From an uncultured virus (IMG/VR IMGVR_UViG_3300005758_000005) (taxonomy: Duplodnaviria > Heunggongvirae > Uroviricota > Caudoviricetes): a DNA stretch of 64,000 nucleotides. Every line of letters begins with the position of its first letter. Position 1 is the stretch's first letter. The DNA lies in IMG/VR virus record IMGVR_UViG_3300005758_000005, positions 62,001 through 126,000 of that record, one strand, 5' to 3'. Positions 2,869-63,620 of the stretch are shown here, piece after piece. The notes under the pieces were generated by a model, which made no database searches, had not been told where the DNA came from, and saw nothing but the letters and a program-made list of their open reading frames with translations. Made by a program: the position numbers and the translations under genes.

Positions 2869-4689
<1,821 letters not shown>

Positions 4690-10132: not shown

Positions 10133-11442
10133 TAAGATACAAGCCTTGGATAAATAGCATTATGATTTCTTTGAGCTTGTTCTGCTGTAAATCCAGTGTT
10201 ATAGAATCTTACTGCAGCGATTTTTCCAGCTGTTTGCCAAGATGCCCATACAGTAATTTGAATTTCATGAGTATTTGTATAGTTATTTGGGTTATATATA
10301 GAATCATCAAAAATACCATTAATATAAGATGTCATTACGCCAGCAGTTCTTGTAAATATGATAGAATACCAAGTGTTAATATATACAGGTCTTTTTCCTC
10401 TTAAGAAAATTCCACTTGGTGTTGTCAGTGGGTTCCAGAAAATCGGATTACCTGCGAACCATGATCCAATTACCCAAGAGTTTCCAGAAGGTACGCCACC
10501 AGTATTTGCCTTAGCTAAAATACCAGTAAGAAAACCCTCTAATGCATAAAAAACAATTTCAACTGTAAAATCTCCTGAAAAATCCATAATTGCATTGTGT
10601 GGAATTGTCAAACGGTCATCAATTGTATCAAGAACAATTACTCCCCCGTTTTCAGCCGACCAAAAAGCTCCATTATTCATAGAACCATTTAAGTTATTTC
10701 CACTCAAGTCATACCAAGTTGTGCCAGTTCCAGGATAAGATACTGGACTGGAAGCATCTAAATTCAAATAAAGCCCTGTTGTAGCAATCGAAACTGTATT
10801 ACTATAAGTTTCTAAAATATGCCTAAAATAAAGAACTTTTGAGGCAGAATCATGCTTTTCTACAGAGCCTATAATAATTACTGAAGGACCATTGCCAGAT
10901 AAATCAGCTTTTACTAATTTACCAGCATTAACACCAGCTCCAAATGTTAAAAGATCTCCTGGAGAAAGAATTACATCTACATTTGAATCTTCTGCAACAG
11001 CCATGGCTAATTTTGTTGCAAATTGGTCTGTGATATAAATTTCTCCTTGGAGATTATATACGCCAGTACCCCTTATGGTTTCTGGATTGTTATTGGATAT
11101 TTGATAAAAATTATTTACATTCTCATCTCTGTAATCTAAAATAGATCTTTTAGGAGCAGCATAAGGAGCATTTGTATTATCGTAAAATGCTGAATCAATA
11201 TTGTAATTACTGCCTACTGGATCGTTATTAATAATTGTGCTAGTAGTTGAGTGATCATTAGAAGAAAATCCAATAAATTTGCTTCTTTGTTCTGCTAAGC
11301 TATCAAAACTGAAAGAAGCTCTATCAGCTAAAACAGCTCGTCCATTATTATCAAACATAAGAGCAGAACCAGCTTTAAAGTCAGTTGAAATTGACACTGG
11401 AATATTTACTACGTACTTATTGAAAAGAGGAAAGATTGCCAT
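10132..11442 (-). CDS. LamG-domain virion protein (paralog 2)
   Basis: LDASSPVSYPGTGTTWYDLSGN...GKIAAVRFYN. Confidence 0.8.
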   Translation of the reverse strand: MAIFPLFNKYVVNIPVSISTDFKAGSALMFDNNGRAVLADRASFSFDSLAEQRSKFIGFSSNDHSTTSTIINNDPVGSNYNIDSAFYDNTNAPYAAPKRSILDYRDENVNNFYQISNNNPETIRGTGVYNLQGEIYITDQFATKLAMAVAEDSNVDVILSPGDLLTFGAGVNAGKLVKADLSGNGPSVIIIGSVEKHDSASKVLYFRHILETYSNTVSIATTGLYLNLDASSPVSYPGTGTTWYDLSGNNLNGSMNNGAFWSAENGGVIVLDTIDDRLTIPHNAIMDFSGDFTVEIVFYALEGFLTGILAKANTGGVPSGNSWVIGSWFAGNPIFWNPLTTPSGIFLRGKRPVYINTWYSIIFTRTAGVMTSYINGIFDDSIYNPNNYTNTHEIQITVWASWQTAGKIAAVRFYNTGFTAEQAQRNHNAIYPRLVS

Positions 11443-12740
11443 TAAATTAATTTACCCATACTTGCATTATAATTTTGTCTTACTTGTTCTGCTGTCATAC
11501 CTTGGGAATATAAGCGTACAAATGGAGTTTTCAATTTTGACCATAAACCATAAGAGTCCCAAGATCCAATAACAAAACCAGTGGAAGTATTTAAGCTTAA
11601 ACTGTTATTAAAAGAAAATCTCAAAGTACCATTATAATAACAATTGATAACACCACTATTACGAGTTACAATTACATGGTTATACTTAGTAAAAGAATTT
11701 TCTCCACCCCATTGATCTAAAGCTGGGGGATACCAAGATCCACTATATCTGATTAAAAACCACATAGAATTGCCACCAGTTGCAGACAATACCCAGTTAG
11801 CCTCTGCGTCTGAACTTCTTCTATGTAACCAACCTCCGCCTCCAACTTGTTTAATCAATGCTCCTTCAATGGTAAAATCTCCAGGAAAATCTAATAGTGA
11901 ATTATCTGCTACAAGGGCTTGGTCATTAGTCCCGTCAAATGTCATTACACCACCATTTTCGCTTGACCAAAGTACACCATTCTGGAGTTCAGCATTCAAT
12001 CCATTACCACTCAAATCATACCAAGTAGTTCCTGACCCTGAATATGATGTAGGATTGCTTGCGTCTAAATGAACTGTGATACCTGTTGTAAATAACGACA
12101 CTGTATTATTGTAACTTTCTAATACATGTCTAAAATACAATAAATTACTGGCTGCATCAAACTTCTCAACTACTCCAATAATCAATACAGAAGGACTAAT
12201 AGCTGAAGTATCTGCCTTTACTAATTTTCCAGCATTGATTCCAGCTCCATAAGTAAGTAAATCACCAACATTAAAATCTACTTGAGCTGTACCATCAGAA
12301 TCAATAAATAAACTTGCAACTCTTGAAAATTGGTCTGTAATATAAATTTCGCCTTGAAGATTGTAAATTCCAATGCCTCTTTTAGAATATTCGGAAAATA
12401 ATACTCCAGAAACTGATTCGTCTCTAAATTCATAAATAGATCTTTTACTTGCAGAATAATGAGAATTAACATTATCTACAAATTTATTATCAGATGAAAT
12501 ATAATTACTGCCTACAGGATCAGACATTAAAATAGAAGATAAATTAGTGTGATCTCCTGAAGCAAAACCTAGAAATTTACCAGATCCTTCAACGATTGAA
12601 TTATAACTAATATTACTTCTGTCCGCTTTAACAGCATTACCATTTGAATCAATAACAAGCGCCATACCAGAAGTAAAGCTCTCATTAGCAATTACTGGGA
12701 AATTTACTGCATGTTTATTATATAGAGGAAAAATTGCCAT
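11442..12740 (-). CDS. LamG-domain virion protein (paralog 1)
   Basis: LDASNPTSYSGSGTTWYDLSGN...FDGTND...VRLYS. Confidence 0.8.
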   Translation of the reverse strand: MAIFPLYNKHAVNFPVIANESFTSGMALVIDSNGNAVKADRSNISYNSIVEGSGKFLGFASGDHTNLSSILMSDPVGSNYISSDNKFVDNVNSHYSASKRSIYEFRDESVSGVLFSEYSKRGIGIYNLQGEIYITDQFSRVASLFIDSDGTAQVDFNVGDLLTYGAGINAGKLVKADTSAISPSVLIIGVVEKFDAASNLLYFRHVLESYNNTVSLFTTGITVHLDASNPTSYSGSGTTWYDLSGNGLNAELQNGVLWSSENGGVMTFDGTNDQALVADNSLLDFPGDFTIEGALIKQVGGGGWLHRRSSDAEANWVLSATGGNSMWFLIRYSGSWYPPALDQWGGENSFTKYNHVIVTRNSGVINCYYNGTLRFSFNNSLSLNTSTGFVIGSWDSYGLWSKLKTPFVRLYSQGMTAEQVRQNYNASMGKLI

Positions 12741-19219: not shown

Positions 19220-19588
19220 TCACTCAGTTACACAATAAGATATACAAACAGTTGGCTCCCAGAAAGATTGCAAATATCGTACCTTTACAGAATTAACATA
19301 TCTAGTAGTGTCATTAGGAACAATTTTTGCTCTTACTAATAAATCTACAATAGGTTTTATCAAATTGTCAGAGTCGTGTTTCATCTTCCAATTCATATCT
19401 GCCATAACTAAAATTTCTACATCAACTGGAAATGAATCAGCTGGCAACATAGATTCAACAATTATTGGTAAATTCTTATCTATCCATTCTCTATATTTTT
19501 TACTTTTAATTAATTTGCCATAAGCTACTGGAGTGTACATCTTATTTGCTGAAAATGGATGTGTAATAGTACAATACTTCTTAAGCAT
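19220..19588 (-). CDS. RusA-like Holliday junction resolvase
   Basis: PFSANKMY...DSDNLIKPIVDLL...NDT motif matches the RusA DxDNxxK..D signature. Confidence 0.75.
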   Translation of the reverse strand: MLKKYCTITHPFSANKMYTPVAYGKLIKSKKYREWIDKNLPIIVESMLPADSFPVDVEILVMADMNWKMKHDSDNLIKPIVDLLVRAKIVPNDTTRYVNSVKVRYLQSFWEPTVCISYCVTE

Positions 19589-28977: not shown

Positions 28978-29154
28978 TTACCAGTTAACTTTTCAAAAAA
29001 TTCTAGGGTCTTTTTATTTTGTGACAGGAGACCAATTAAAAAATATATCATGGCACAAATAAAGAAAACAGCAGTGCATTTAAATAACATAATCATACCA
29101 GTCCCCCAAATAAATTATATCATACTTATTCGGGGGATTTAACTTTCCTTCTTT

Positions 29155-29460
29155 TTAGATTTCCAGTTTTTTAAGCCTACTGTAACTTGCCTTGGATATA
29201 TTAAGATTAGCAGGTATATCTTTTTCCGAAATTCCCTGTTCTTTCAAATTCTTAACCCTATTCAAAAGGTCTGTGTAATCTTTCTTTGGACGACCTAATT
29301 GTTTTGTTGAAAATTCTCCACGGTCGATAATTCTAACAGTAGCAACCAGATTATCTTCTTCGTCGTAATAATGCTTAATCTTATCAATATTTGTAACATC
29401 TGAAAGAATCAATTGGAAGATATCGTTCTCTAAGGCAGATGTTTCAATTTTATACTTCAT
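29155..29460 (-). CDS. Small HTH DNA-binding protein
   Basis: GGAGG RBS; GRPKK followed by GISEKDIPANLNISKASYSRL. Confidence 0.6.
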   Translation of the reverse strand: MKYKIETSALENDIFQLILSDVTNIDKIKHYYDEEDNLVATVRIIDRGEFSTKQLGRPKKDYTDLLNRVKNLKEQGISEKDIPANLNISKASYSRLKKLEI

Positions 29461-29538
29461 GACTTTCCTCCCATAAATTATATCAGAAAAGAATACGAGA
29501 GGCAAAAAAATAACCCCTATATTTCAAGGGGCTATGTT

Positions 29539-29808
29539 TTAATCCAATATGTTAGCGAGGCGGTCTTCTTTAGTTTTTACATGACCAGAGAACCAGCCTG
29601 TCCTTCTTGGTTCACTACTTTCAGACAATTCAAGAACCTTAAGCAGATTCTTGTAAGTTTCTTCTTCTCTTTCAATCTGGTATGAAATCTTTGTTGCAAC
29701 GTCAGGATTGGATTTCAACAGGTCGATTTGAATATCCTTAAGTGCAACAATCTGATGACGCTTCGCTACCAGAATCTCTTTCAAACGGTCAGAATTTTTT
29801 GTCTTCAT
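29539..29808 (-). CDS. Hypothetical coiled-coil protein
   Basis: AAGGAG RBS; own promoter and terminator. Confidence 0.6.
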   Translation of the reverse strand: MKTKNSDRLKEILVAKRHQIVALKDIQIDLLKSNPDVATKISYQIEREEETYKNLLKVLELSESSEPRRTGWFSGHVKTKEDRLANILD

Positions 29809-29845
29809 TCTTAACTCCTTGTATGTATCTTATCACAAATATTAA

Positions 29846-30313
29846 ATGACGCAAGCAGAAATAATATCTTTGTTTCCAGATATTATTCATGATACTATAA
29901 GCCATCACACGAAAGGTTTAGGGGAGATGGTTTTCTACAATAAGGAATGGGAGAATCCACTTTATTGGTTTGACAAGTTGTTGAAATATTCCAATCATGC
30001 TGAGTTACGTAGTTATGAGCGTGATTTGCCATTAATAGATTTCTTGCCAATAGATTCAAAATTTCTATACAGCACTAGGAAAATAGATGTATATTCTATG
30101 ACTTTTGAAACAACTATTAAAGGCAAGAGGGTGGAAATCGCAATCAACTCTTTAGGTGCTGTAATGACTGTGTATCCTATCATCAACACCATAGCAGATA
30201 AGTTTCAGTTCAAATATAAGCGGTATCTTGGTGCATTTAAACAGCCTGATGATTATATTCCACCAATCATTACAGAATATGATTTAAACGATGTAGACAT
30301 GGAGTATTTATAA
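29846..30313 (+). CDS. Hypothetical protein
   Basis: 155-aa ORF followed by a hairpin. Confidence 0.5.
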   Translation: MTQAEIISLFPDIIHDTISHHTKGLGEMVFYNKEWENPLYWFDKLLKYSNHAELRSYERDLPLIDFLPIDSKFLYSTRKIDVYSMTFETTIKGKRVEIAINSLGAVMTVYPIINTIADKFQFKYKRYLGAFKQPDDYIPPIITEYDLNDVDMEYL

Positions 30314-30469
30314 GGTAATTTCAAAGCAGGGTTTTTACTCTGCTTTTTTATTTATATAAGAGCAAAAGTTTCCAATTGATGGCAAAGACAAAAAAAATCC
30401 CCTAGAGTTTTTAAGGCTCTAGGGGATAAAGGAGTTACACATGAAACACAAACAGAAACAGGTTTTGAA

Positions 30470-30748
30470 ATGTGGTTGGCTGGAGTTCAACCAGTACGGA
30501 ACACAAGGGCAGTTCTTTCGATGGTCTCTGCCTCCGATGGTATTCTTGTCTCATATGAGAGCATAATACCCAACCACATATTATATGCCTTGACATAACT
30601 GTTTGCGTCAGTCCCTGCCAAGGACAGTAAGAACTTGTGGCTTTTTGACCACCCCAAGGTTGCTACCCTTATTTGAATCTCGCAATAGATTCTAGCCGTT
30701 CTGGATTCTTACTGGTTGAGGGAGGTTCTAGACTCCATCCCTACACCA
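30470..30748 (-). ncRNA. Candidate structured non-coding RNA with a tRNA-like 3' domain
   Basis: Minus-strand promoter TTGCAG-N17-TAATAT (30779-30751); no minus-strand ORF of 60 aa or more; pairings 30470-30479/30570-30579 and 30625-30633/30706-30714; terminator ~30390-30428. Confidence 0.5.
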
Positions 30749-30801
30749 ATATATTACGCCATCTCTAAGTAATCTGCAAGGGCTATTTTCATCTATTTTT
30801 T

Positions 30802-30857
30802 GTTATTTGGATCATTCTGTCGGGGGGTTAACCCCCCGAGGACTTGTTTTAAATAAT
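30802..30857. repeat. 56-bp dyad element, copy 1
   Basis: Core TCGGGGGGTTAACCCCCCGA at 30820-30839 with N11-spaced TTATTT/AAATAAT arms. Confidence 0.95.
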
Positions 30858-30938
30858 ATTTTTTAGTATAGAATTTGCAAAAAAAATCCCCTTCAAGATT
30901 TAACAAGAAGGGGTTGGAGGTGAACACCACATTCACAG

Positions 30939-31388
30939 TTATAGTTTACAGGCAATATCTTCTGTTGTCAAGGTGTATTCTGGAAGAAATTCCTTAACAA
31001 GTTTCCATCCATCTTTTTCGTAAACATTGTAAACTTGCCAGACATTATTAACATACAGATAAAAGTAATCTACACTGGAAGAATATATGTTGTGTAATTC
31101 ATCCATTGAGGTAATTACAGCATCTACGCCATCTTCCCCACGGTCTCTGTTATAGAATACTGTTACACCCTCTTCTGGGTTATCAAAAGTATGTTCACCT
31201 TCAGGATGTAATTCAGATGTAAGATAACTCATATCACCAAAACTAAGCAATTCATTGATGCTATCTACTGTATTGTAATTTGCAACCAGAGTTTGACCTA
31301 CACCATCAGGATATCCATCAAAGTGACAATAAGAATGCTTGATTGTTCCATCATAAAGCATAATACCGATTCTAGCGTGAGTTGACAT
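30939..31388 (-). CDS. Conserved phage hypothetical protein
   Basis: MSTHARIGI...YCHFDGYPDGVG motif; AAGGAG RBS. Confidence 0.7.
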   Translation of the reverse strand: MSTHARIGIMLYDGTIKHSYCHFDGYPDGVGQTLVANYNTVDSINELLSFGDMSYLTSELHPEGEHTFDNPEEGVTVFYNRDRGEDGVDAVITSMDELHNIYSSSVDYFYLYVNNVWQVYNVYEKDGWKLVKEFLPEYTLTTEDIACKL

Positions 31389-31425
31389 ATTTATCTCCTT
31401 GGATTAAGTATATCACAATTTAAAT

Positions 31426-31746
31426 TTACAGAATGATATATTTAAATTGCTCTTTGCCTTGCCATGCCCGTGAAAGTCCTGCCAATGTCATCCAAACTAA
31501 AGACAAGAAACTAACACCACAGACACAACCTACAAATGTCATAGTATTGTGAATGTTGCCAATCAAAATGTATTCAATCAAACAAGCAATTGGCATTACA
31601 CAAGCAACAGCAAATGATAATAGTACAGAGTATTCAAGCATATTATGAAACACTTTTGGCATATGCTTTGTAATCTGCCAAAATGCGACAAAACCGCCTG
31701 TGTAAAGAAAAACCTGCATTGTTCTATTAATAATCTCTTCGTTCAT
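31426..31746 (-). CDS. Small membrane protein
   Basis: Three hydrophobic segments; coupled to the upstream gene. Confidence 0.55.
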   Translation of the reverse strand: MNEEIINRTMQVFLYTGGFVAFWQITKHMPKVFHNMLEYSVLLSFAVACVMPIACLIEYILIGNIHNTMTFVGCVCGVSFLSLVWMTLAGLSRAWQGKEQFKYIIL

Positions 31747-31964
31747 CCTGCTATCTCCCATTGTTCAGAAAGTATATCTTCTGCTGTAAACCTATAACAA
31801 GCCCAGAAACTCATTTCTTCTCCAGTAGACCAAATACATTTAAATCTTAGTTTTGATTCTTCCATCTTAACTAAAATAACAGTAGTGGATTTTGGATTCC
31901 ATTTCTTGCTTCTGGTGATTGTTTTACCATCACGCATAAAGGGCAATACTTGTTCAAGTTTCAT
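31743..31964 (-). CDS. DUF2829/Tad2-like small protein (possible anti-defence sponge)
   Basis: M.L..VL..MRDGKTITRSKKWN...FTAEDILSEQWEI pattern; leaderless start. Confidence 0.5.
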   Translation of the reverse strand: MKLEQVLPFMRDGKTITRSKKWNPKSTTVILVKMEESKLRFKCIWSTGEEMSFWACYRFTAEDILSEQWEIAG

Positions 31965-32009
31965 ACACCTATATTATCATAAAATATTACTGCGTCAAGG
32001 ATAAAAAAC

Positions 32010-32065
32010 ATTATTTGTTTCCACCTGTCGGGGGGTTAACCCCCCGAAGACTGGAGTTAAATAAT
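32010..32065. repeat. 56-bp dyad element, copy 2
   Basis: Core 32028-32047; followed by the + strand promoter TTGCAT...TATAAT. Confidence 0.95.
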
Positions 32066-32164
32066 AAAAAAAAGATTTGCATCATATATTATTTTTGATA
32101 TAATGTATGCATCGTTGAGGTTTAGAACCCTCCTGCGGGGTGAATCGCAGGGCTGGAGGCTGAT

Positions 32165-32545
32165 ATGCGTAACTTGTATGACAAGATGTGTTGCTGGTGC
32201 AAGGGTCACGTTCGTGCGGGCGAGGGTCAGGCTTGGAACTATCGTGGGCGATGGTATGCGGGATGCCCTACCTGCCTTGAGGAGCGTAAAGGTTCTAAGG
32301 CTAAGGCGGATATTCGCATTGAGTATCCATGCGTGATGGCAACGTCCAGTACCAATGTATACGGCGTGTTCAAGTATGACACATACCCTGCAAGTTCGGT
32401 TCTGGCAGGTGCGGAACGGCGTACGTGGCTTGATGAGTTTGCAACGCTTGAGGAGGCTATTAAGGCTTACCCTAAGGCAACCAAGCACTGTGGTCCCGGC
32501 TACCATGAAGACAACTACGAGTGGCTCTCTGAGGAGGAGGACTAA
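32165..32545 (+). CDS. GC-rich cassette gene, possible Zn-binding hypothetical protein
   Basis: GGAGG RBS; CCWC and CPTC motifs; terminator GACCCC-TTCG-GGGGTC-T run. Confidence 0.65.
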   Translation: MRNLYDKMCCWCKGHVRAGEGQAWNYRGRWYAGCPTCLEERKGSKAKADIRIEYPCVMATSSTNVYGVFKYDTYPASSVLAGAERRTWLDEFATLEEAIKAYPKATKHCGPGYHEDNYEWLSEEED

Positions 32546-32597
32546 AGCCTTGACCCCTTCGGGGGTCTTTTTTTTTATCTATAGCAATCTAAAATTT

Positions 32598-32655
32598 ATT
32601 ATTTAACTCAAGTCTTCGGGGGGTTAACCCCCCCCGACAGAAAGATACAAATAAT
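32598..32655. repeat. Dyad element, copy 3 (inverted orientation, C8 run)
   Basis: Core 32616-32637. Confidence 0.95.
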
Positions 32656-32714
32656 AAAAAATAGTCTTGCATCAGTTATTATTTTTGATATAATAAGAGC
32701 ATAAGGAGTTTGGA

Positions 32715-32987
32715 ATGAAAGTTAACTTGAAAGAGTATGGTCTCTGTGACGTTGTAAAGAACGAGTATCCTAACGGTAATCTCGCATTGTCCCTCAAGGA
32801 TGCGTACGGTTCTCCAATCGCTAGCGTTAGCACAAACATCATCCCCCTGTTCGACAATGAGTTTGTTCTTGATGTAAACAACCTGTCTCTTATCCTTGAT
32901 GAGATTCTTGAATCCGGGTTGTTTCAGGACACGGGAGACAAGGTGCAATCAGGGTTTGTAGAATATCCAATCTACAGGTTGGTATAA
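32715..32987 (+). CDS. DUF4313-like protein
   Basis: Y.NGNLAL.L...PIA.VS.N...LDVNN...TG..VQSGFVEYP.Y; AAGGAG RBS. Confidence 0.6.
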   Translation: MKVNLKEYGLCDVVKNEYPNGNLALSLKDAYGSPIASVSTNIIPLFDNEFVLDVNNLSLILDEILESGLFQDTGDKVQSGFVEYPIYRLV

Positions 32988-33083
32988 GATAGGGGGCTTG
33001 AAAAAGCCCCCTATTGTTTTATCTAGGCTTGCTAAAAAACCTTATTTGAAAAAAGTTGTCGTATAAGATATTTGAGGTGAAAA

Positions 33084-33470
33084 ATGGAACAAGCTGTAAT
33101 GATTGGTTTGGTATCGGTTTTATTTTGTTTCAATGTCTGGTTAATTGGTGCAAATGAATCAATCAAGAATCAAAATGAAACTCTAAAGAATCTTAACAAC
33201 AATTTGAATAAAGATTTAGAAGAATTAAAGAGTAAAAATTCTTCTCTTTGGCATGAAACATTAGAATTAAAAGAACACATTGAATCTTATAAATTTCCTG
33301 TAGGTTCTAAGGTTAAGTGGTTAGATCGCACAGGAGAAGAAGAATTTGGAATTGTCTATGATGATTATGAGATTCTAGATAAGCATTATGTTGTTATTAA
33401 AAGATTGAAAGATGACAAATTAATTGGCTCTCCACTTTCAATTAAGGCAGAAAAATTAACAGTATTATAA
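33084..33470 (+). CDS. Membrane-anchored coiled-coil hypothetical protein
   Basis: GAGGTG RBS; N-terminal TM segment, coiled coil, beta-rich C-terminus. Confidence 0.55.
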   Translation: MEQAVMIGLVSVLFCFNVWLIGANESIKNQNETLKNLNNNLNKDLEELKSKNSSLWHETLELKEHIESYKFPVGSKVKWLDRTGEEEFGIVYDDYEILDKHYVVIKRLKDDKLIGSPLSIKAEKLTVL

Positions 33471-33738
33471 AAAAAAATCCCCCTTGAATAATCTTGGGGG
33501 ATAACTTTTACTTTACGGAATATTGGGTATAAAATCTGCTACCGTCATTTAATACCCATTCTGTTTTATATTTCCTAGCACACGTTTCACCTAACTCTTG
33601 TGCATTAGACCCAGAAGCCAAAAGCAATCCATTCCTAAACGCAGAAAACTTAAGTCTAGGAAAGTTAGTTACAAAACGAACCTCAATCTTATCTTGCAAA
33701 TCCATGTCCATCTCCTTACAAAAATAGTATATCAGAAA

Positions 33739-34236
33739 TCATTTAAGAGTCAAGAGTTTACTGCTTAAATAAGGGTCATTTTTAAATCTTTTTAGCCCCA
33801 TCTTTGTATATCCCAATGCATTTAATCTATCACCATTTTTAATACAAAGACTAACAAGAGAGTGAAAAGTAGTGGCGGGACAATCTTTAAAACGGATAGC
33901 ACTTTCATAATAACGGATTGATAATTGTTCATCTTTCTTCATCGACCTATAAAACATACCAGTAAATTCATAAGACCTATATCCATTAGGCATTAGGGAC
34001 AAATATCTCTTAGTAAAAATTTCAGCATCATTTAACCAGCTTGAATCTTTACTATTAATACTCATAGACCACATAAGCCAAATCATATTCTCCCAAGCAT
34101 CACGGTCTTTGTAATCTATCTTAAGCACTTCTTTGTATAGATTAATAATTTTGGGATAGTCACCAGTTTTAGTATCTGTGCCATGCCAAAGAGTTTCAAT
34201 AGTTTTCTTTAAATATTCTAGTTTACGAGTTTGCAC
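33739..34236 (-). CDS. TPR-like helical protein
   Basis: GDYPKIINLYKEVLKIDY, SIRYYESAIRF helical repeats. Confidence 0.55.
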   Translation of the reverse strand: MQTRKLEYLKKTIETLWHGTDTKTGDYPKIINLYKEVLKIDYKDRDAWENMIWLMWSMSINSKDSSWLNDAEIFTKRYLSLMPNGYRSYEFTGMFYRSMKKDEQLSIRYYESAIRFKDCPATTFHSLVSLCIKNGDRLNALGYTKMGLKRFKNDPYLSSKLLTLK

Positions 34237-34573
34237 TTGCTTCTAACTCCAATTCTTCTGCATCATAAGTATTTAAAATATGATTACTAACATTCTGCGG
34301 TAATTCTACATTCTTCATAAAACCTAAAAGAATAATTTTCTTCTTAAAATTTTCGTAAACAGTTTTTCTTTTACGTTGAGAATTATCCCACTCATATGTA
34401 AATAAATTCATATCATTTAAAATTGAAGAGTGACTAAATTCAATAAGATAAGTACCATCCATATGAATAAAAGAATCAAAACCGGAAATTATATCATCTC
34501 CCTTTAATTCATATCCTGTGCCAGTTTTAGAAAAATATATCCAGACTTTTGTTTCCATGTCAAATTTTACCAT
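34223..34573 (-). CDS. Hypothetical protein
   Basis: 116-aa ORF downstream of dyad copy 4 on the minus strand. Confidence 0.5.
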   Translation of the reverse strand: MVKFDMETKVWIYFSKTGTGYELKGDDIISGFDSFIHMDGTYLIEFSHSSILNDMNLFTYEWDNSQRKRKTVYENFKKKIILLGFMKNVELPQNVSNHILNTYDAEELELEASANS

Positions 34574-34605
34574 ATATATTTAATGTCTGCAATTATCTAA
34601 AAAAG

Positions 34606-34661
34606 ATTATTTGAAACATTCTGTCGGGGGGTTAACCCCCCGAGGACTTGAAACAAATAAT
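34606..34661. repeat. 56-bp dyad element, copy 4
   Basis: Core 34624-34643. Confidence 0.95.
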
Positions 34662-34713
34662 AAAAAATAGTTCATCTGAGACAAAAAAAGACCCCGTTTC
34701 AGGGGTCTTTAGA

Positions 34714-34974
34714 TTACAGTTCGATATTGATGTAAGATACACCGATTAAGTTATGGATAGAATATTCTTTCCAGTTCTTAAGAAGGGTCTCTGCAAACTC
34801 ATGTCCTTCCAGAGCCTTTTTGATAGCATCTGAGAACTTGTTCGTCCTTACCAGAGTATAAGTGGTTTTATCATCACCGTATGTAAACTCATCAAGGACA
34901 TCGTTGCAAACATCTGTGTCAAGTTCCAGAGTGTAAAAGATGTCTGATGCATCTGCGAATGTTACCTGTCTCAT
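34714..34974 (-). CDS. Single-gene cassette, acidic hypothetical protein
   Basis: Promoter TTGCAT..TATTAT, AAGGAGG RBS, terminator ~34684-34710. Confidence 0.7.
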   Translation of the reverse strand: MRQVTFADASDIFYTLELDTDVCNDVLDEFTYGDDKTTYTLVRTNKFSDAIKKALEGHEFAETLLKNWKEYSIHNLIGVSYINIEL

Positions 34975-35048
34975 GTCAACCTCCTTGGTTACAGGTTAAT
35001 AATATCATAAATGATTTGTGATGCAATGGGTATTTTAAACTATTTTTT

Positions 35049-35104
35049 ATTATTTAAATCATTCCTTCGGGGGGTTAACCCCCCGACGACTGGAAACAAA
35101 TAAT
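35049..35104. repeat. 56-bp dyad element, copy 5
   Basis: Core 35067-35086. Confidence 0.95.
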
Positions 35105-35156
35105 AAATTTTAGATTGACAAAAGCAAAAAAAAGCCCCCGTTTCAGGGGGGGCTTG

Positions 35157-35876
35157 CTACGCCATCGGCAGAATCTTTAATGCCTTTTTAATCTTTTTAT
35201 CTGTTCCAGTATCAGGGGCGAACAGAATCACAAGTTTACGGCGGTGGAGGTGCTTATCCTGCATACAAAGCCCGCAGGACTTGCAAGAGTCGGTTTTCTT
35301 GACCTGATAGGGACAAGGGATACCAGTAAAGCCGTTTCCAAGGTTCACAGGGCGATGTGATTCGTGTTTAGTAGGAACGACCAGACTACAGGCATAACCA
35401 CGGTCATGCTCTACTTGTAACTGTTCCACGGATTCGCACGAACGCAGAATACTAACATCGCCCCAAACATTACGGGGAACATCCAATGCATGGGTGTATG
35501 TCCAAACCCGTTTGCCGGAACGCTTTATATAAGCATTATACGCTTCTGATACAATCCGGGCGGCTTCCACGGTTTTACAATCACCGACAACATGACCCCG
35601 CAGGTCATACTTGCCTTTAAGACGGTTCACGGCATCCGCTTCAAAACGGGCTATCTGTTCCGGTGTAAACATTCCAATGGACTGTGCTAGGTTCAATCGT
35701 TTTGTTGTAATACCTGCATGACCTGTTTCGGCATAACATCCTGCATTATAGAAGGAACAGTTAGATGGGCATGAACCTTGACTTGCCCAAGTAGCGGACA
35801 CCGTTTTGTCGGTGGAAAGTTTACGGTCGGCAGACCGCTCTACGGCAATGGCTGGGGCTGTGTATGTGTAACTCAT
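35157..35876 (-). CDS. Cys-rich conserved phage protein (Gp88-like), single-gene cassette
   Basis: SCPSNCSFYNAGCYA, LRGHVVGD, WTYTH, CPYQ...CKSCGLC; leaderless start. Confidence 0.55.
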   Translation of the reverse strand: MSYTYTAPAIAVERSADRKLSTDKTVSATWASQGSCPSNCSFYNAGCYAETGHAGITTKRLNLAQSIGMFTPEQIARFEADAVNRLKGKYDLRGHVVGDCKTVEAARIVSEAYNAYIKRSGKRVWTYTHALDVPRNVWGDVSILRSCESVEQLQVEHDRGYACSLVVPTKHESHRPVNLGNGFTGIPCPYQVKKTDSCKSCGLCMQDKHLHRRKLVILFAPDTGTDKKIKKALKILPMA

Positions 35877-35931
35877 GACATCATTATATCGACATTATAT
35901 AAAAATACAATGGCATTTTGAACTATTTTTT

Positions 35932-35987
35932 ATTATTTAAAACATTCCTTCGGGGGGTTAACCCCCCGACGACTGGAAACAAATAAT
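35932..35987. repeat. 56-bp dyad element, copy 6
   Basis: Core 35950-35969; 35908-36006 identical to 36845-36943. Confidence 0.95.
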
Positions 35988-36049
35988 GTTTTTCAGATTG
36001 ACAAATGCCAAAAAATGCCCCCCATTTCTGGAGGGCTGGTTGGTTGATT

Positions 36050-36415
36050 TTAGAACAACCGGGAATATGGTTTGGTTGCCAATGCACCGTCTGGTATGGC
36101 AATGCTGTAGTGGTTGCTAAGTTTACCGAACAGGTTTGGGAGGCTCTTGTGGAGGTGTGCAAAGGCGAATGTCTTGCCCTTGGAGGTTACCTTCATCGAT
36201 ACGTGAACACGGTTCAGAGCGTCAACGTAAAGGTGAACATCGACCTCAGAAGAGCGGAAAACGACATATTCGTTGCTGTCCACCTTCTCAGATACACGCT
36301 CATAGGACGCAGGGAGAGACTCTGCAAGCGTATTAATGAAGGCATCCAAAGCACGGGGCATGGACACAGGGGCGACATTGAGGAATGGTTCGGAGACAAA
36401 GTTTACGGTTTTCAT
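36050..36415 (-). CDS. GC-rich cassette hypothetical protein
   Basis: AAAGGA RBS; terminator ~36010-36040. Confidence 0.6.
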   Translation of the reverse strand: MKTVNFVSEPFLNVAPVSMPRALDAFINTLAESLPASYERVSEKVDSNEYVVFRSSEVDVHLYVDALNRVHVSMKVTSKGKTFAFAHLHKSLPNLFGKLSNHYSIAIPDGALATKPYSRLF

Positions 36416-36464
36416 TGGTTATCCTTTCAAAGCCCCCTGTAGTGACCTACAAGGGGCATATAGA

Positions 36465-36779
36465 CTATTCTGCGATGGTCTTTCCGGTGTTATCGGCAAT
36501 AAGAGCATTGAAGAAGAATGTCTCTGCCTTGATACGGGCATCCAAGAGCATGACAGACTTTTCAAGGAATCTTACAGATTCAATCTTGTCCTGAAGAATC
36601 AGTGTCATGTGAGCGTTACGGGTTGTTTCGTTGGTTCCGAAACCTTTGTACTCTTCGGACGCTTGAATCTTTGCCTCAGAGAGCAGGAGGTCAAGTTTAG
36701 CGTCCATGAGAAGGGACGTAGCCCCTGCCTTTTCGGTGAGCAGGTCTTTGAGAGTGGTTGCGATGGTCGTAGTGTTCAT
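36465..36779 (-). CDS. GC-rich cassette coiled-coil protein
   Basis: GGAG RBS; promoter TTGCAA-N17-TATACT next to copy 7. Confidence 0.6.
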   Translation of the reverse strand: MNTTTIATTLKDLLTEKAGATSLLMDAKLDLLLSEAKIQASEEYKGFGTNETTRNAHMTLILQDKIESVRFLEKSVMLLDARIKAETFFFNALIADNTGKTIAE

Positions 36780-36868
36780 ACGGTTCTCCGGTCAGTGTAG
36801 CCCGATTGCTACAGGAACAGTATAGGAAATATTTAATGACATTGCAATGGCATTTTGAACTATTTTTT

Positions 36869-36924
36869 ATTATTTAAAACATTCCTTCGGGGGGTTAACC
36901 CCCCGACGACTGGAAACAAATAAT
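36869..36924. repeat. 56-bp dyad element, copy 7
   Basis: Core 36887-36906. Confidence 0.95.
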
Positions 36925-36974
36925 GTTTTTCAGATTGACAAATTATAAAAATAGGGGTAGTTAACCCCTATTAA

Positions 36975-37268
36975 TTAATAAATAATGTTAAGGAATTTAG
37001 TCTTAACACAACGTCCTTCTTTATTAAGAAATTGTGCAATTCTCAGGATATTTACAATATCATAACCGTTGCCAGTATCACAACATAAATTATATGCATC
37101 ATAAAGGTTACCTTCAAGAATCTGCCCAACAAATCCGTGATAACGCAAGCGGGATGCATTTTCGTTATCCATGAAAGCTTGGAAATCTTCGATTATGTTT
37201 GCGATAGGATAATAAGTTTCACTTACAGGCTTGCCCATAAACATCAGTACAGTTTCTGTCATCATCAA
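36975..37268 (-). CDS. Single-gene cassette hypothetical protein
   Basis: AAGGAG RBS, TATAAT box, terminator ~36950-36972. Confidence 0.6.
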   Translation of the reverse strand: MMMTETVLMFMGKPVSETYYPIANIIEDFQAFMDNENASRLRYHGFVGQILEGNLYDAYNLCCDTGNGYDIVNILRIAQFLNKEGRCVKTKFLNIIY

Positions 37269-37322
37269 ACTCCTTACATGAATATTATATCAAAAAGTAC
37301 AATGAATTTCTGACTTTTATTT

Positions 37323-37379
37323 ATTATTTATATCTTTCTGTCGGGGGGGTTAACCCCCCGAGGACTGGAAACAAATAAT
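37323..37379. repeat. Dyad element, copy 8 (G7 run)
   Basis: Core 37341-37361. Confidence 0.95.
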
Positions 37380-37441
37380 GAAAAATAGTTTAAAAAATGG
37401 CAAAAAATCCCCCCATTTCTGGGGGGAATGTGGTAGGGAGG

Positions 37442-38770
37442 TTAGACCCCTACCATCTGATACTTTGCAACGATGTTCTCCGGGAGAGAGGAGGCACTAT
37501 CGGAGAGCGTTCCCCAACGCTTCTGTATCGCCTTCAGGTCTGCATCAATGGACGGTGCAAGGATGATGCTTGCGGTCGTTTCCATCTGTTCACGGAGAAC
37601 ACCGGAGAATGCTTGCGCCCCTCTTGTGAGACCGTTTACAAGACCGAATGCCGTTTCGTGGGCAATGTCTCCAGATGGTTCCTGAAGCGTCTCCAGATAA
37701 CCTTGCGACCATGCACGACCCTGCTCTATGGTCATCTTGTTGTCACGGGCTACCTTAGCGATAACCTGCTGTACATTCTTGACCTTGACCTGTTGGGTGA
37801 GGTTCATCAGGGTGAGAATGGCGTTGCCTTCAGACAACGCCAGAATAACAGCCTCCCGAACCTGTAGACGGATGTTGTCCTTGTCGATGGTTCCAAGGTG
37901 CTTTTGGTTGATGGCAATCTCAGAGTTACGCCGTCCCCATATCATGCCATTGAGACAGATGGCACGGAACAGGAATGGAGAAATCTTGAATGCACCGTTG
38001 CGAATCTCACTGTTGCGGAATGAGATGCCCACGCCGTAATCAGAATCAGGCTGTTGCTTGATGTAGTCTGGCAGGAGGATGTTGCCTTGAATATCATCTC
38101 CATTGTTGAAGAAATGGGATGCCAGAGCATCATTGAGGTTGCTACCAGATGGCAGAGCATCGGCGATAAACTCCAGAGCGTCAAGATTGTCCAATACACC
38201 GTACCGACCAGAGCAAACAGCACGAACAACAGGTGCATCACCCTCTTGACGGAGACGGAGACGAAAGTTCCGTGCGTCACGGTCACGCTCTCCATTGTTC
38301 CATTCGCTTTCACGCTTGGTAAGTTCGGCGTTGAAATACTTGGGAATGTCGGTCTCAAAACCTGCATTGACCAAGTAGGAAACAGTGGTGGAAGGAATCG
38401 GGGTGAAGGTGCGGAGGGATTCCAAACCGTCTGCGTTGATAGCCGTGCCATCGGTCAAGCGGTCATAGGATGCCAAGCGAACCTCAGACTCCAAGACAAC
38501 CTTGTCGAACTTGCCTTCGTGTTGATTGCGAACAACGGAGAGAGCATCTGACATAGGTGTACACTTGTCCTGCCATACCTTTGCTACATGGCGGTGGGTT
38601 GCGGATGATTCCAAGCCAATAGCATTCTTCCATGTGCCGTTAGCATCTTGCTTTGCAACGGAATCAGGGCGAACCTGCAAACCTGTCTCTGCACCGAAAA
38701 CCTGCGTGTTAGGGGAGACTACAGGGACGTTGTCCCCAATCTCAAGGATACCGAATCTGTCTTTGTTCAT
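37442..38770 (-). CDS. DUF932-like phage/plasmid protein, GC-rich single-gene cassette
   Basis: RAVCSGRYGVLDN...GISFRNSE...PFLFRAICLNGMI...TAFGLVNGLT. Confidence 0.6.
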   Translation of the reverse strand: MNKDRFGILEIGDNVPVVSPNTQVFGAETGLQVRPDSVAKQDANGTWKNAIGLESSATHRHVAKVWQDKCTPMSDALSVVRNQHEGKFDKVVLESEVRLASYDRLTDGTAINADGLESLRTFTPIPSTTVSYLVNAGFETDIPKYFNAELTKRESEWNNGERDRDARNFRLRLRQEGDAPVVRAVCSGRYGVLDNLDALEFIADALPSGSNLNDALASHFFNNGDDIQGNILLPDYIKQQPDSDYGVGISFRNSEIRNGAFKISPFLFRAICLNGMIWGRRNSEIAINQKHLGTIDKDNIRLQVREAVILALSEGNAILTLMNLTQQVKVKNVQQVIAKVARDNKMTIEQGRAWSQGYLETLQEPSGDIAHETAFGLVNGLTRGAQAFSGVLREQMETTASIILAPSIDADLKAIQKRWGTLSDSASSLPENIVAKYQMVGV

Positions 38771-38864
38771 TCCAAAATCTCCTGTAGCGGTCGGCTACGA
38801 AAAGATTATATCGAACTGTCAAGGAAAAACAATAAAAAACTACGCTGATTTTGAACTATTTTTT

Positions 38865-38920
38865 ATTATTTGTTTCCAGCCTTCGGGGGGTTAACCCCCC
38901 GACAGAATGTTTTAAATAAT
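38865..38920. repeat. Dyad element, copy 9 (inverted orientation)
   Basis: Core 38883-38902. Confidence 0.95.
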
Positions 38921-39035
38921 CTTTTTTAGTTTCAAATTGACAAAAAAAATATCTTTAAACCTTGTGATATTTAAATTTATATCCTACAATGTTGTATAGG
39001 ATATTAATAATCATTTTTGAAAGCGGTGTGACTCT

Positions 39036-39455
39036 ATGATATTAAAAATCAAAAATCTTGTGGAAGAATATGCAGATATATTCCCTCATAGGACGTTGGA
39101 TATTTTGCCTCAAATCTCAACGAAAAATGATAAAATATTGCTTAAGTATAGAAGTAATTACACCATGAGTAATTTTTTAATTTGTTGTGGTAATTACAGG
39201 GATAAGCATGGCAAGGTATTAGATTTAAAATATACTGATATAAAAGATGCCATGAGAATGAAGGCTGAAGATTTTTATATTTGGGGTTATTTAGAGGAGC
39301 AAGGTTTTTCTGAATTTGAGATGAAACTTTCAGATTTCTTTTCTTATAAGCCAGAATCTTTTTATAATCTTGACTCGAAAATCTGGGTAGTAAGAGACTC
39401 GAATTTTTCACCCATGACATTAGAGGAATACAAATACACCAAAAGATTGTTCTGA
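39036..39455 (+). CDS. Hypothetical protein
   Basis: 139-aa ORF. Confidence 0.5.
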   Translation: MILKIKNLVEEYADIFPHRTLDILPQISTKNDKILLKYRSNYTMSNFLICCGNYRDKHGKVLDLKYTDIKDAMRMKAEDFYIWGYLEEQGFSEFEMKLSDFFSYKPESFYNLDSKIWVVRDSNFSPMTLEEYKYTKRLF

Positions 39456-39558
39456 GAGTTTGCATAAGAGATTGTATCATGCTCGAATTTTGTATGCTCG
39501 AAAAAGTGCTATGCTCGAAAAAGAAAAATCCCACCTTGATTAGAGATGGGATTAAGAA

Positions 39559-39630
39559 CAGCTCCAGTAAGAATCGAACTTACAATATGGCTTTAGAAGA
39601 GCCGTGTTATATCCATTTAACTATAGAGCC
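39559..39630 (-). tRNA. tRNA-Arg(UCU)
   Basis: Acceptor GGCTCTA/TGGAGCT, anticodon loop CT-TCT-AA, T-loop TTCGATT. Confidence 0.9.
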
Positions 39631-39945
39631 TTAACTGACTATATTATACCACTATTTTCCGTATTTGCTATTAATGTCATCAACCATTTTAATCAATTTA
39701 TCAAGCCGTTTACAGAGATAATAATTTGCGACAAAGATAGGAATTGACATTATAATTCCTAATACCATTCCTCTGACAAGTGCTTCGAGTAAATTCATTT
39801 TTTTTAATCTTTCTTTTTGAGTGATTTATATTCTTTCAGGGTTTTTCGCAGCATATAGATTTGAAAGAATATTGGAACGTATAATAAAATAAATAAGACG
39901 ATGAATATAGTATAGAGATTGTGTTTAATAAATTCCATGTCTCTA

Positions 39946-40233
39946 TTATATCACACATCTATTGAGACTGTCTTGTTCTTGGAAATATTTTGTTGCTTCT
40001 AATGCACATTTCCATCCAAACAATTTATCTTGGACTTGATTAAAATTAAAACCTAAAGAGACAAAATCAATCCATTCATTTTCTGTGATATGATAAATGA
40101 TTGTTACGAACCAATTATCTTCTGATGAATCGTATCTGGAGTTTTGAGCCATATCGAAAAATAAAATAATAGAAGAGTTTTGATTAATTTCTTCTATTGT
40201 GTTTTTGATAACTTCGGCTTGTTCTTTAGTCAT
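39946..40233 (-). CDS. Hypothetical protein
   Basis: 95-aa ORF immediately downstream of a tRNA. Confidence 0.5.
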   Translation of the reverse strand: MTKEQAEVIKNTIEEINQNSSIILFFDMAQNSRYDSSEDNWFVTIIYHITENEWIDFVSLGFNFNQVQDKLFGWKCALEATKYFQEQDSLNRCVI

Positions 40234-40242
40234 AATTTAAAA

Positions 40243-40313
40243 AGCTCCATAGACGAATCAAACGCCTACCTAATCTTTACAAGAGAACCGTACTATCTTT
40301 ATACTAATGGAGC
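40243..40313 (-). tRNA. tRNA-Thr(UGU), possibly degenerate
   Basis: Acceptor GCTCCAT/ATGGAGC, loop CT-TGT-AA; T-loop TTTGATT and a mismatched anticodon stem. Confidence 0.7.
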
Positions 40314-40322
40314 AAAAAAAGG

Positions 40323-40393
40323 TTCCCAGACAAGGATTTGAACCTCGATAAACAGAGCCAAAATCTGCTGAATTGCCGTTATTCGATCTGGGA
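40323..40393 (-). tRNA. tRNA-Gln(UUG)
   Basis: Acceptor TCCCAGA/TCTGGGA, loop TT-TTG-GC, T-loop TTCAAAT. Confidence 0.85.
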
Positions 40394-40413
40394 ACAATCA
40401 AACTAATTATACA

Positions 40414-41172
40414 TCAAAATTCTGGTTTATCAAGTTTACCAGATTTAATTTTTTCCCAATCACCTCTGCCTGGTTTTGTGATGTTATAGTATTTACACCA
40501 TTTATTAACAGCATTATCACTAACACCAAACATTTCTCCAATTTTTATGCAAGGCATTTCCCATACGAGTTTTTCTAAAATTTCTTTGTCTGGTCTTTTA
40601 GATACTTTAATAACAGGTTGATAAAATTTTTCTGGCTGCACTTCTTTAACATATTTTGGAAATAATGTCTTTTGAGCAATAAAAATTTTTTCAGCATCGA
40701 TAAGTCCGGCGTGTATTTCTCCATGGCAGTTAGAGCATACTAAAATACACTTGTCTAATTCATCAACAATTAAGTCAAATTTTCTAACATTAATTTCTCC
40801 TATATTGAATGATTTAGTTTCTGGATATACGTGATGAAAATGTAAAGAGCCAATATACTTGTTATAACCACAAACTGAACAAGCTCCGCCTTTATATTCA
40901 ATTGCTCTTTCTTTAGTTTTAGTTCTATAGATTAAACTATAACATCTACTACATTTATCTTTGTGCTTTCTGTGTCCACCTTGATATTTTCTTTCACAAA
41001 TTTTACAAATCTTCATAACAACTCTTGTGTCATCATTTTCTAAACTTCTTGTGTTATGTGATCCAAAAGGTGAACAGTCTAAACAATATTTTCTTTTATC
41101 AAATTTTCTTACTTTTCCATCTATGAACATACTACATGGAATTTTATTGTTACACTTTAAACAATTTCTCAT
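40414..41172 (-). CDS. Free-standing HNH homing-endonuclease-like protein with Zn fingers and C-terminal HTH
   Basis: YKGGACSVCGY...LHFHHV...LDKCILVCSNCHGEIH; IGEMFGVSDNAVNKW. Confidence 0.8.
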   Translation of the reverse strand: MRNCLKCNNKIPCSMFIDGKVRKFDKRKYCLDCSPFGSHNTRSLENDDTRVVMKICKICERKYQGGHRKHKDKCSRCYSLIYRTKTKERAIEYKGGACSVCGYNKYIGSLHFHHVYPETKSFNIGEINVRKFDLIVDELDKCILVCSNCHGEIHAGLIDAEKIFIAQKTLFPKYVKEVQPEKFYQPVIKVSKRPDKEILEKLVWEMPCIKIGEMFGVSDNAVNKWCKYYNITKPGRGDWEKIKSGKLDKPEF

Positions 41173-41267: not shown

Positions 41268-41339
41268 TAGTCTGTAGGGGAATTGAACCCCTGACTCATC
41301 CGTGAAAGGGACGCATCTTAACCACTTGACCAACAGACC
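41268..41339 (-). tRNA. tRNA-Glu(UUC)
   Basis: Acceptor GGTCTGT/ACAGACT, loop CT-TTC-AC, T-loop TTCAATT. Confidence 0.9.
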
Positions 41340-59267: not shown

Positions 59268-59283
59268 ATTTTATTATTCCCCT

Positions 59284-59730: not shown

Positions 59731-59789
59731 AAAAATAAAAAAGAGGAAAAGAATATTCCTTTCCTCTTCTCCCTTAAAAAATAAAAATC

Positions 59790-60287: not shown

Positions 60288-60379
60288 ATTTTTTCCTTTC
60301 GGCTGTGGATTCTTAAACGATATCCTTACAAAATAATAGAGAAAAATCCTCTATATCCTCTTTTACAATAAAAATATCC

Positions 60380-60931: not shown

Positions 60932-60960
60932 CCCTTAAATCCATCCTGTATAATAAACGC

Positions 60961-62550: not shown

Positions 62551-62558
62551 ATATTATT

Positions 62559-63086: not shown

Positions 63087-63140
63087 TATTGTGGTTTTGT
63101 TTTTTTGATCTGCTCTTTTTATAGGGCAGATTTTTTTTTG

Positions 63141-63563: not shown

Positions 63564-63620
63564 GTGTTTATTGTATCATAGGTTTAGGATTGTGTGTGTT
63601 GTTTCTAGAATGTTTTATTT

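Follow-up and report, generated by a model that had tools for sequence, protein, structure and literature searches.

This report concerns an array of repeated dyad elements, and the gene cassettes lying between them, in a 64,000-nucleotide stretch of DNA from an uncultured virus (the window). The window corresponds to bases 62001-126000 of the 129,429-base IMG/VR record IMGVR_UViG_3300005758_000005 (G000), which is estimated to be 36% complete. Two sibling contigs comprise 300,536 bases (G001, 84% complete) and 60,230 bases, and the source, a so far uncultured giant phage from freshwater and estuaries, has an estimated genome size of about 360 kb. Megablast of window positions 30000-40000 against cultured phage records returned no match.

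Each element is built around a 20-base core, which is followed on either side by an 11-base arm (N11) and a 7-bp AT-rich box. A search for the core with up to three mismatches yields nine copies in the window, seven exact and two with a homopolymer indel (two extra C in copy 3, one extra G in copy 8), starting at 30820, 32028, 32616, 34624, 35067, 35950, 36887, 37341/2 and 38883; none of 100 shuffles contained any match, the chance expectation being 0. The box-N11-core-N11-box pattern fits all nine copies, with N11 exact in 18 of 18 half-sites and a C at arm position 5 in each of them. All nine elements are intergenic and confined to 8 kb. Neither the 16-mer core nor an nhmmer profile of the 80-bp element detected a tenth copy in the 129,429-bp record, and both siblings hold the same nine copies at identical spacing, the 300-kb sibling without any beyond them. 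A preliminary description of the window, made from the letters and predicted reading frames alone, had reported nine copies at these positions, their strict spacing with the conserved C, the flipped orientation of copies 3 and 9, and the absence of such an element elsewhere in the window. All of these points were confirmed, the orientation by arm type and by the better-scoring strand of the nhmmer profile, and the absence for the whole record. Two arm types are distinguished, of which A always faces a promoter and B faces a terminator, but a promoter at copies 2 and 9.

The elements and cassettes are arranged as follows (element coordinates refer to the conserved unit of 74 bp or slightly more; intrinsic terminators are those of the terminator scan):

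30793..30866, no strand: element 1 (56-bp part 30802-30857); A arm at left toward a promoter-like flank, B arm toward the cassette 1 terminator
30939..31964, minus: cassette 1, three genes, 30939-31388 (phrog_1987), 31426-31761 and 31743-31964
31743-31964, minus: cassette 1 gene of 73 amino acids, Tad2-like (PF11195, E 7.2e-8, 33.3 bits, cut-off 25)
31998..31971, leftward: predicted promoter at element 2, for cassette 1
32001..32074, no strand: element 2 (56-bp part 32010-32065), flanked by divergent promoters
32076..32104, rightward: predicted promoter at element 2, for cassette 2
32165..32545, plus: cassette 2, GC-rich gene of 126 amino acids, no family; third-position excess against two relatives
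32552-32567, plus: intrinsic terminator related to that of cassette 4
32589..32664, no strand: element 3, flipped, two extra C (58-bp part 32598-32655); cassette 2 terminator at left, rightward promoter at right (read by eye)
32715..34573, both strands: cassette 3, convergent layout, two plus-strand and three minus-strand genes
32715-32987 and 33084-33470, plus: cassette 3 genes, the first with a weak DUF4313 match below the cut-off
33508-33711, 33739-34236 and 34223-34573, minus: cassette 3 genes
34597..34670, no strand: element 4 (56-bp part 34606-34661)
34687..34710, minus: intrinsic terminator of cassette 4
34714..34974, minus: cassette 4, gene of 86 amino acids, no family; frame supported by codon-position pattern
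35040..35113, no strand: element 5 (56-bp part 35049-35104)
35132-35155, 36017-36036, 36950-36972 and 37408-37427, minus: intrinsic terminators related to that of cassette 4
35157..35876, minus: cassette 5, gene of 239 amino acids, DUF7227 / GP88-like (E 2.3e-15)
35923..35996, no strand: element 6 (56-bp part 35932-35987)
36050-36415 and 36465-36779, minus: cassette 6, two genes, codon-position pattern
36860..36933, no strand: element 7 (56-bp part 36869-36924)
36975..37268, minus: cassette 7, gene of 97 amino acids, codon-position pattern
37314..37388, no strand: element 8, core longer by one G (57-bp part 37323-37379)
37442..38770, minus: cassette 8, gene of 442 amino acids, DUF932 (E 1.1e-6)
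38856..38929, no strand: element 9, flipped (56-bp part 38865-38920); promoter-type flanks on both sides

The GC contents of cassettes 2, 5, 6 and 8 amount to 0.50, 0.47, 0.48 and 0.50, respectively, versus 0.33 outside the array, in agreement with the earlier remark that several cassettes are GC-richer than the genome; cassettes 1, 3, 4 and 7 lie at 0.32-0.38. In all open reading frames (ORFs) tested (those of cassettes 2, 4, 5 and 7 and both of cassette 6), changes relative to related sequences pile up at third codon positions, with 68 of 81 changes for the cassette 5 gene against one relative. These ORFs are therefore regarded as real genes, and the substitution pattern shows purifying selection on them. 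For cassette 6, the codon-position pattern across three relatives led to the two minus-strand genes being preferred to longer plus-strand ORFs. Public contigs of three sequencing runs carry 12-base insertions at 32300-32305 in the cassette 2 gene; these leave the frame intact and represent length variants of a GC-rich repeat within the coding sequence. The match to PF11195, the Thoeris anti-defence Tad2-like domain, spans the whole 73-residue protein of cassette 1, possibly an anti-defence cargo of the array. Besides the Tad2-like, DUF7227, DUF932, sub-threshold DUF4313 and phrog_1987 matches, no family was matched by the cassette genes; NCBIfam gave nothing credible for 19 cassette proteins, and the family searches yielded no candidate DNA-binding gene among the cassettes.

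Architecture of the repeated module

The 56-bp part taken as the complete dyad in the preliminary description is real, but the true conserved unit measures 74 bp and reaches into the promoter and terminator flanks, with an A/T run of six and then TAG outside each 7-bp box. Among 88 outer flanks from 44 distinct extended elements of the window's lineage, an A is present at +8 in every case, a T precedes that A in 76 and the full TAG is found in 66; the A/T run reads A6 in 37 flanks and N-T5 in 25. Between the left and right outer runs, no more than 74 of 264 positions are complementary, and the outer part is accordingly taken to act at the DNA level instead of forming a stem. A search of the entire record for box-N6-TAG yields 16 occurrences, of which 12 coincide with elements. 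Within the 56-bp part, the window copies share a mean identity of 88%. Exact stretches common to copies measure 16-99 bp in direct and 18-30 bp in inverted orientation, the longest (99 bp) being shared by elements 6 and 7, and tandem repeats were not found within the array.

Beyond the TAG, a -35-like hexamer is found on both sides, and the box and A/T run lie directly upstream of it. The A-side hexamers belong to sigma70-like promoters: those at elements 2, 6, 7 and 9 are listed by the promoter scan, and those at elements 1, 3, 4, 5 and 8, some with an extended -10, were read by eye at the consensus level. The gap between the outer TAG and the -35 hexamer, read by eye at eight flanks, is either 2-4 or 12-13 nucleotides. 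Terminator-like sites are enriched in the region 29500-40500 (27 versus 8.9 +/- 3.1 in shuffles), and canonical intrinsic terminators, whose hairpins resemble one another, lie 20-45 nucleotides from the B arms. The placement of the elements between a terminator and a sigma70-like promoter, or between divergent promoters, as described before, agrees with these sites.

All nine copies can form a stem of 8 bp (G6/C6 plus two pairs) with a 4-nucleotide loop. Predicted RNA folds of the module consist of the terminator hairpin, the G/C stem and an outer stem made of the two 7-bp boxes, in which the N11 arms form internal loops; fold z-scores of four module RNAs range from -3.9 to -5.0. The earlier observation that the arms do not pair with each other applies to the N11 segments but not to the outer boxes, which are inverted repeats and pair in the predicted folds. 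In a set of 39 distinct 56-bp elements from the lineage, 25 have a TTAA loop, 13 have TAAA or TTTA, and one carries a five-letter TTTA variant.

The 16-mer core was found at 57 loci in IMG/VR, and those beyond the two sibling contigs are without the arms; a 16-mer of the outer box was found at at least 113 loci, and among the matches listed one, a sibling contig, has the element. In a scan of window 29000-41000 against Rfam 15 with E up to 1, no element was matched, the hits being three tRNAs and two weak, unrelated ones. One otherwise unrelated metagenome contig of 1.2 kb (Ga0194015_1004566, L074) holds two copies of a different module, 563 bp apart (approximately 14-60 and 565-620), with the same 20-base core (one with a TTTA loop) and without the AT boxes.

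Cassettes and hairpins in related phages

A metagenome scan for the core identified 31 loci, including about a dozen contigs 76-97% identical to the window, and the inter-element segments of these relatives were mapped onto the window cassettes (c1 to c8; E, element). Several contigs keep the cassette order of the window. JACCEB010284046.1 (L092) reads c8-E-c6-E-c5-E-c4-E-c3, with c7 absent exactly between two elements. The 3.2-kb contig Ga0172367_10053804 (L076) reads c8-E-c4-E-c6-E-c2 with all cassettes co-oriented, which means that c2 is inverted and the order changed. The 18-kb contig Ga0208554_1000066 (L077-L080) retains the window order with a shorter c2, about 330 extra bases in c3 and a c1 without the phrog_1987 gene. 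Its element 1 (L080) is split at the centre by a ~440-bp inversion of window 30385-30826; one junction retains 10 of the 20 core bases and the other 7, and the second breakpoint of the inversion has no element. In the same contig, 11 of 16 element halves are nearer to a non-orthologous than to the orthologous window half, orthology being taken from the segment map, and this fits exchange between copies. Comparison of these relatives shows loss, reordering and inversion of cassettes at the modules. Cassette capture or shuffling, which had been proposed from the window alone, is supported accordingly by whole cassettes, their order and their orientation, which differ between relatives with junctions at the elements; identical order and content, with no breakpoints there, is not what the relatives present.

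Public sequencing data comprise at least 20 rows from 10 studies that hold part of the stretch, and contigs of four runs were compared with the window. These contigs end at element cores, as repeats would cause. Two joints are unusable as evidence, one from 35921 to 37392 on opposite strands, which is weak (depth 5, one side of 39 letters), and one from 31336 to 38051, which holds 21 foreign letters. One metatranscriptome run covers parts of c3, c4, c5, c6 and c8, a coverage that is no proof of transcription. In two runs the summed contig depth at 30300-30900 and 31500-31800 is 10-50 times that of the rest of the array, and these stretches may be shared with more abundant relatives.

Analogous arrays occur in more distant phages. 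For the DUF932 protein of cassette 8, 735 homologues were found at E <=0.001 among 8000 scored candidates; many of them (hundreds) are 55-60% identical, some on contigs of 358-370 kb. A locus search with this gene as a single protein returned the siblings only, and an alignment-based locus search returned nine loci with 54-58% identity. In the lineages of five of these (L222, L224, L225, L226 and L228), the DUF932 gene is flanked by analogous dyads consisting of a similar AT box, approximately 10-13 bases, a GC-rich palindrome of 22-26 bases and the mirror image, the palindrome sequence differing by lineage. The remaining loci carry other GC hairpins, and a further dyad type was encountered elsewhere on the contig of L227.

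One such array lies on a 316-kb contig (G004), where 26 hairpin elements occur within 27 kb (G004:C1:1-27300; L230 and L231), with -35-like boxes about 10-13 bp from the hairpins. It contains approximately 100 small ORFs on both strands and is much larger than the array of the window. Over its 15 distinct cores, 98% of cells pair and three of ten pairs change on both sides; the covariation score was reached by 0 of 500 shuffles, and sliding the partner lowers pairing to 40-65%. On a 358-kb contig (G003), at least seven hairpins follow -35-like boxes, and their middle three stem positions differ in a compensated manner. Such different compensated cores within one genome speak for selection for pairing and argue against a single dimeric protein recognizing one sequence. 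The covariation thus shows a pairing constraint on the hairpins of the sister lineages and points to selection of the dyad core of the window as a hairpin. The preliminary description had favored a symmetric protein-binding site over a hairpin; the compensatory stem changes in sister lineages speak against this preference, and binding of a protein to the arms is compatible with them.

Probable modules of the PeSL type and competing explanations

The interpretation preferred here, with a probability of roughly 0.68, is that the nine dyads are the cores of regulatory modules of the promoter-early stem-loop (PeSL) type, whose cassettes are shuffled by homologous recombination. According to two reports, a PeSL is a repeat of ~100 bp in which a stable stem-loop and an AT-rich upstream tract accompany a sigma70-like early promoter; the stem-loop takes the form G(n)-loop-C(n) in RB49/phi1, has other stems in other lineages, and varies in position, sometimes lying upstream of the -35 (PMC2839356, PMC4122927). 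PeSLs are described in T4-type phages (RB49/phi1, T4/PST and KVP40/nt-1), where they are concentrated in hyperplastic regions, in front of ORFans that vary from one close relative to the next. They are thought to shuffle genes by homologous recombination; promoter and terminator activity as well as mini-circles were demonstrated by experiment (PMC2839356, PMC4122927).

The preliminary description had named PeSL cassettes as an analogue and regarded the motif as different from them. This judgment does not hold, as every sequence-level feature given in the reports is found here: a sigma70-like early promoter within the motif (at the consensus level), a stable polyG/polyC stem-loop beside it in all nine copies, an AT-rich tract (the 7-bp box and A/T run) upstream of the -35-like hexamers, and an intergenic, hyperplastic cluster in which relatives differ in c7, in parts of c1, c2 and c3, in order and in orientation. 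The resemblance further includes small genes of unknown function alongside, which close relatives gain, lose or replace, the lineage-specific stem-loop, and UvsX-type recombination genes of the phage's own. The latter comprise a RecA/UvsX-like recombinase, an SbcD-like nuclease subunit with an adjoining exonuclease, a RecJ-like exonuclease and a RusA-like resolvase gene at window 19220-19588.

Along the direction of transcription, a module consists of the upstream terminator, the AT-rich block (CTA, A/T run of six, 7-bp box and 11-bp arm) mirrored around the enclosed 8-bp G/C stem with its 4-nucleotide loop, and one or two sigma70-type promoters that serve the next cassette. Modules of this kind would supply each cassette with its start and stop, and the hairpin would damp read-through from either side. 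Since the modules are near-identical and palindromic, they would offer short homology in both orientations to the UvsX-like, RusA-like and SbcD-like gene products, and crossovers between them would remove, add, rearrange or flip complete working cassettes. Promoter geometry that has been inherited may account for the strict 11-bp spacing, because the element is scored as a pair of outward promoter-like sites, each with a spacer of 18 bp, and because sister lineages set their -35-like boxes at the same distance from the hairpin.

If correct, this reading carries PeSL-type shuffling over to a widespread clade of giant phages, so far uncultured, from fresh and estuarine waters. In the literature searched for PeSLs and jumbo phages, shuffling has been published for T4-type phages only, and one jumbo-phage review mentions PeSLs once. 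New aspects are the occurrence in a giant phage not shown to be T4-like, the two-fold symmetry, a terminator separate from the hairpin, the natural comparative evidence of cassette loss, reordering and inversion at the modules, the break at a palindrome centre, and the lineage-specific hairpins with compensatory changes. The two-fold symmetric design would explain cassettes in either orientation; such islands could be a good hunting ground for new accessory and anti-defence genes, and the modules could serve as compact natural insulator-promoter parts.

Several points weigh against this interpretation or set the modules apart from PeSLs. The phage is a giant one and not shown to be T4-like; its genes for replication and recombination belong to T4-like types (UvsX-like, clamp, clamp loader, SbcD-like, rIIA/rIIB), its portal and terminase matches fall in other PHROG families, and a Pfam search for Gp23 was silent, as were its controls. 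Differences from PeSLs also exist in the strictly spaced, two-fold symmetric 74-bp dyad, in the separate canonical terminator, in the inversions with both cassette orientations, and in the kind of evidence, which is experimental for PeSL activity and mini-circles and purely sequence-based for the present modules. Their promoter and terminator activity is predicted at the consensus level, and exchange is read from comparison. The dyad hairpin lacks a U run and already follows a canonical terminator, so that a role of the hairpin as an attenuator is only a guess. Stem changes among the 39 elements are confined to G/C run length and one uncompensated mismatch; as the G6/C6 stem hardly varies in the window's lineage, pairing is deduced from the sister lineages. 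The rearranged contig L076 is a single 3.2-kb metagenome assembly that may be chimeric, although no two of its three elements are alike, and the public contigs show no clean joint at elements. Finally, no arm indel occurs among the 39 elements, a set whose collection pattern itself required N11, and the printed profile matches fit N11 except for the split copy; of the 78 half-sites, 75 have C at arm position 5 and all have pyrimidines at positions 9-10. This arm order, together with the conserved C, the pyrimidines and the A at +8, exceeds the needs of homology or a hairpin, and may stem from promoter geometry, protein contacts or a recent spread of copies.

A further and doubtful reading takes the dyads as purpose-built hotspots of recombination that are more than repeated regulatory DNA. 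The GC palindrome, embedded in easily melted AT-rich DNA, would extrude as a hairpin or cruciform, its tip would be cut by the phage SbcD/SbcC-like (gp46/47-type) nuclease, and the UvsX-like recombinase would repair the break on any other copy in either orientation; a protein controlling these steps could make contact with the strictly spaced positions in arms and boxes. Cutting of the palindromes as a possible start of exchange is suggested by the central break seen in one relative and by the SbcD-like gene. The array would then be an orientation-free platform of a giant-phage clade for the exchange of accessory genes, possibly including anti-defence genes.

The strict arms would also fit an operator or insulator, at which a symmetric (dimeric or tetrameric) protein of phage or host would switch the early promoters, shuffling being a by-product. 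The exact N11 in the window half-sites and in the wider set, the conserved C and pyrimidines, an outer run of A6 or T5-6 regardless of strand, which is a DNA-level feature, and the two classes of TAG to -35 gap, differing by about one helical turn, would all agree with such a site. Such an explanation is nevertheless improbable: the differing compensated cores in sister genomes disfavor a single binding protein, loop variants without central symmetry are frequent (13 of 39 distinct elements), the numerous other small genes of early type on either side of the island are without the element, and the cassettes offered no candidate gene for such a protein.

The spacing might instead be part of a promoter spacer if each dyad consisted of two back-to-back outward promoters, with a -35-like sequence at the hairpin apex, an 18-bp spacer, a -10-like sequence in the box and a start at the T-A of the TAG. 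In the nine elements the scan found 15 such sites scoring 9 of 12, on one strand or on both, but chance alone often gives this score (32 +/- 6 sites when the region is shuffled). The invariant A (88/88) after T (76/88), 7-8 nucleotides past the box, and the -35-like boxes at a similar distance from the G004 hairpins would agree with this arrangement. It is judged distinctly improbable in view of the poor -35 match, which loop variants weaken further, the better promoters that follow on the A side, and the direction of a B-side promoter, which would read the upstream gene in antisense.

Target sites for a dedicated recombination system, either site-specific or hairpin-dependent (attC-like, IS200/IS605/REP-like, or cut at the centre by a nuclease), would account for the cassette-precise differences and the inversion in relatives, for the one break exactly at the palindrome centre, and for folded imperfect palindromes with unpaired arms, but are very improbable, since searches of G000 and G001 gave no match to PF00589 (Phage_integrase; control matched in 14 of 14 genomes), PF00239 (Resolvase; 12 of 14) or PF01797 (Y1_Tnp; 6 of 14), the cassettes have promoters and terminators of their own in both orientations, the centre GTTAAC is not conserved (loop TAAA or TTTA in 13 of 39), and one inversion breakpoint is free of any element. 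The absence of a visible recombinase noted earlier for the window therefore extends to tyrosine and serine recombinases and Y1 transposases in the 129-kb record, and for the dedicated recombination sites considered in the preliminary description no such enzyme was found in the 300-kb sibling (84% complete) either.

Integron attC arrays resemble the locus in that short cassettes of variable content are bounded by imperfect palindromes that fold with unpaired stretches. They differ from it by their integrase, by cassettes that do not share the predicted promoters, terminators and mixed orientation found here (c2 and part of c3 being opposite), and by their sites, as attC sites conserve structure rather than sequence, whereas the central core is near-invariant within the present lineage. 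REP and BIME sequences (repetitive extragenic palindromes and bacterial interspersed mosaic elements) are lineage-specific, GC-rich intergenic palindromes near gene 3' ends that occur in many copies and can serve as recombination and transcript-end elements. In contrast to REP/BIME and their RAYT (REP-associated tyrosine transposase) systems, the present elements are limited to one 8-kb island and coupled to promoters, and no Y1 transposase was found in G000 or G001. Miniature inverted-repeat transposable elements were rejected, as the printed flanks show no target duplication and there is neither a transposase nor a copy outside the island, and so was a telomere-resolvase target, given nine internal copies and a variable centre. 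Processing of read-through RNA by RNase III at the elements was a possible role, but the idea was dropped.

Neighbouring features of the window

Beyond the array, an HNH endonuclease gene (40414-41172, minus; phrog_2255, E 1.4e-38) lies between tRNA-Gln (40321-40393) and tRNA-Glu (41268-41339), inside a five-member tRNA gene cluster (Arg, Thr, Gln, Glu and Asn). In JACCEE012159142.1 (L073) the stretch matching the HNH gene is unalignable and ~140 bases shorter, and the gene looks like a free-standing homing endonuclease indel. On the minus strand at 6217-12740, five tandem paralogues of 429-442 amino acids are encoded, whose C-terminal halves match phrog_8510 and phrog_24074 (virion structural). 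A DnaK (Hsp70) homologue of 605 amino acids (2869-4686, minus) is 55-68% identical to phage and bacterial matches; its tblastn search was useless for classification. Toward the end of the window (59000-64000), the GC skew rises from -0.53 at 60-61 kb to +0.49 at 62-63 kb while the AT skew is strongly negative, and this swing coincides with a change of the coding strand near 61-62 kb.

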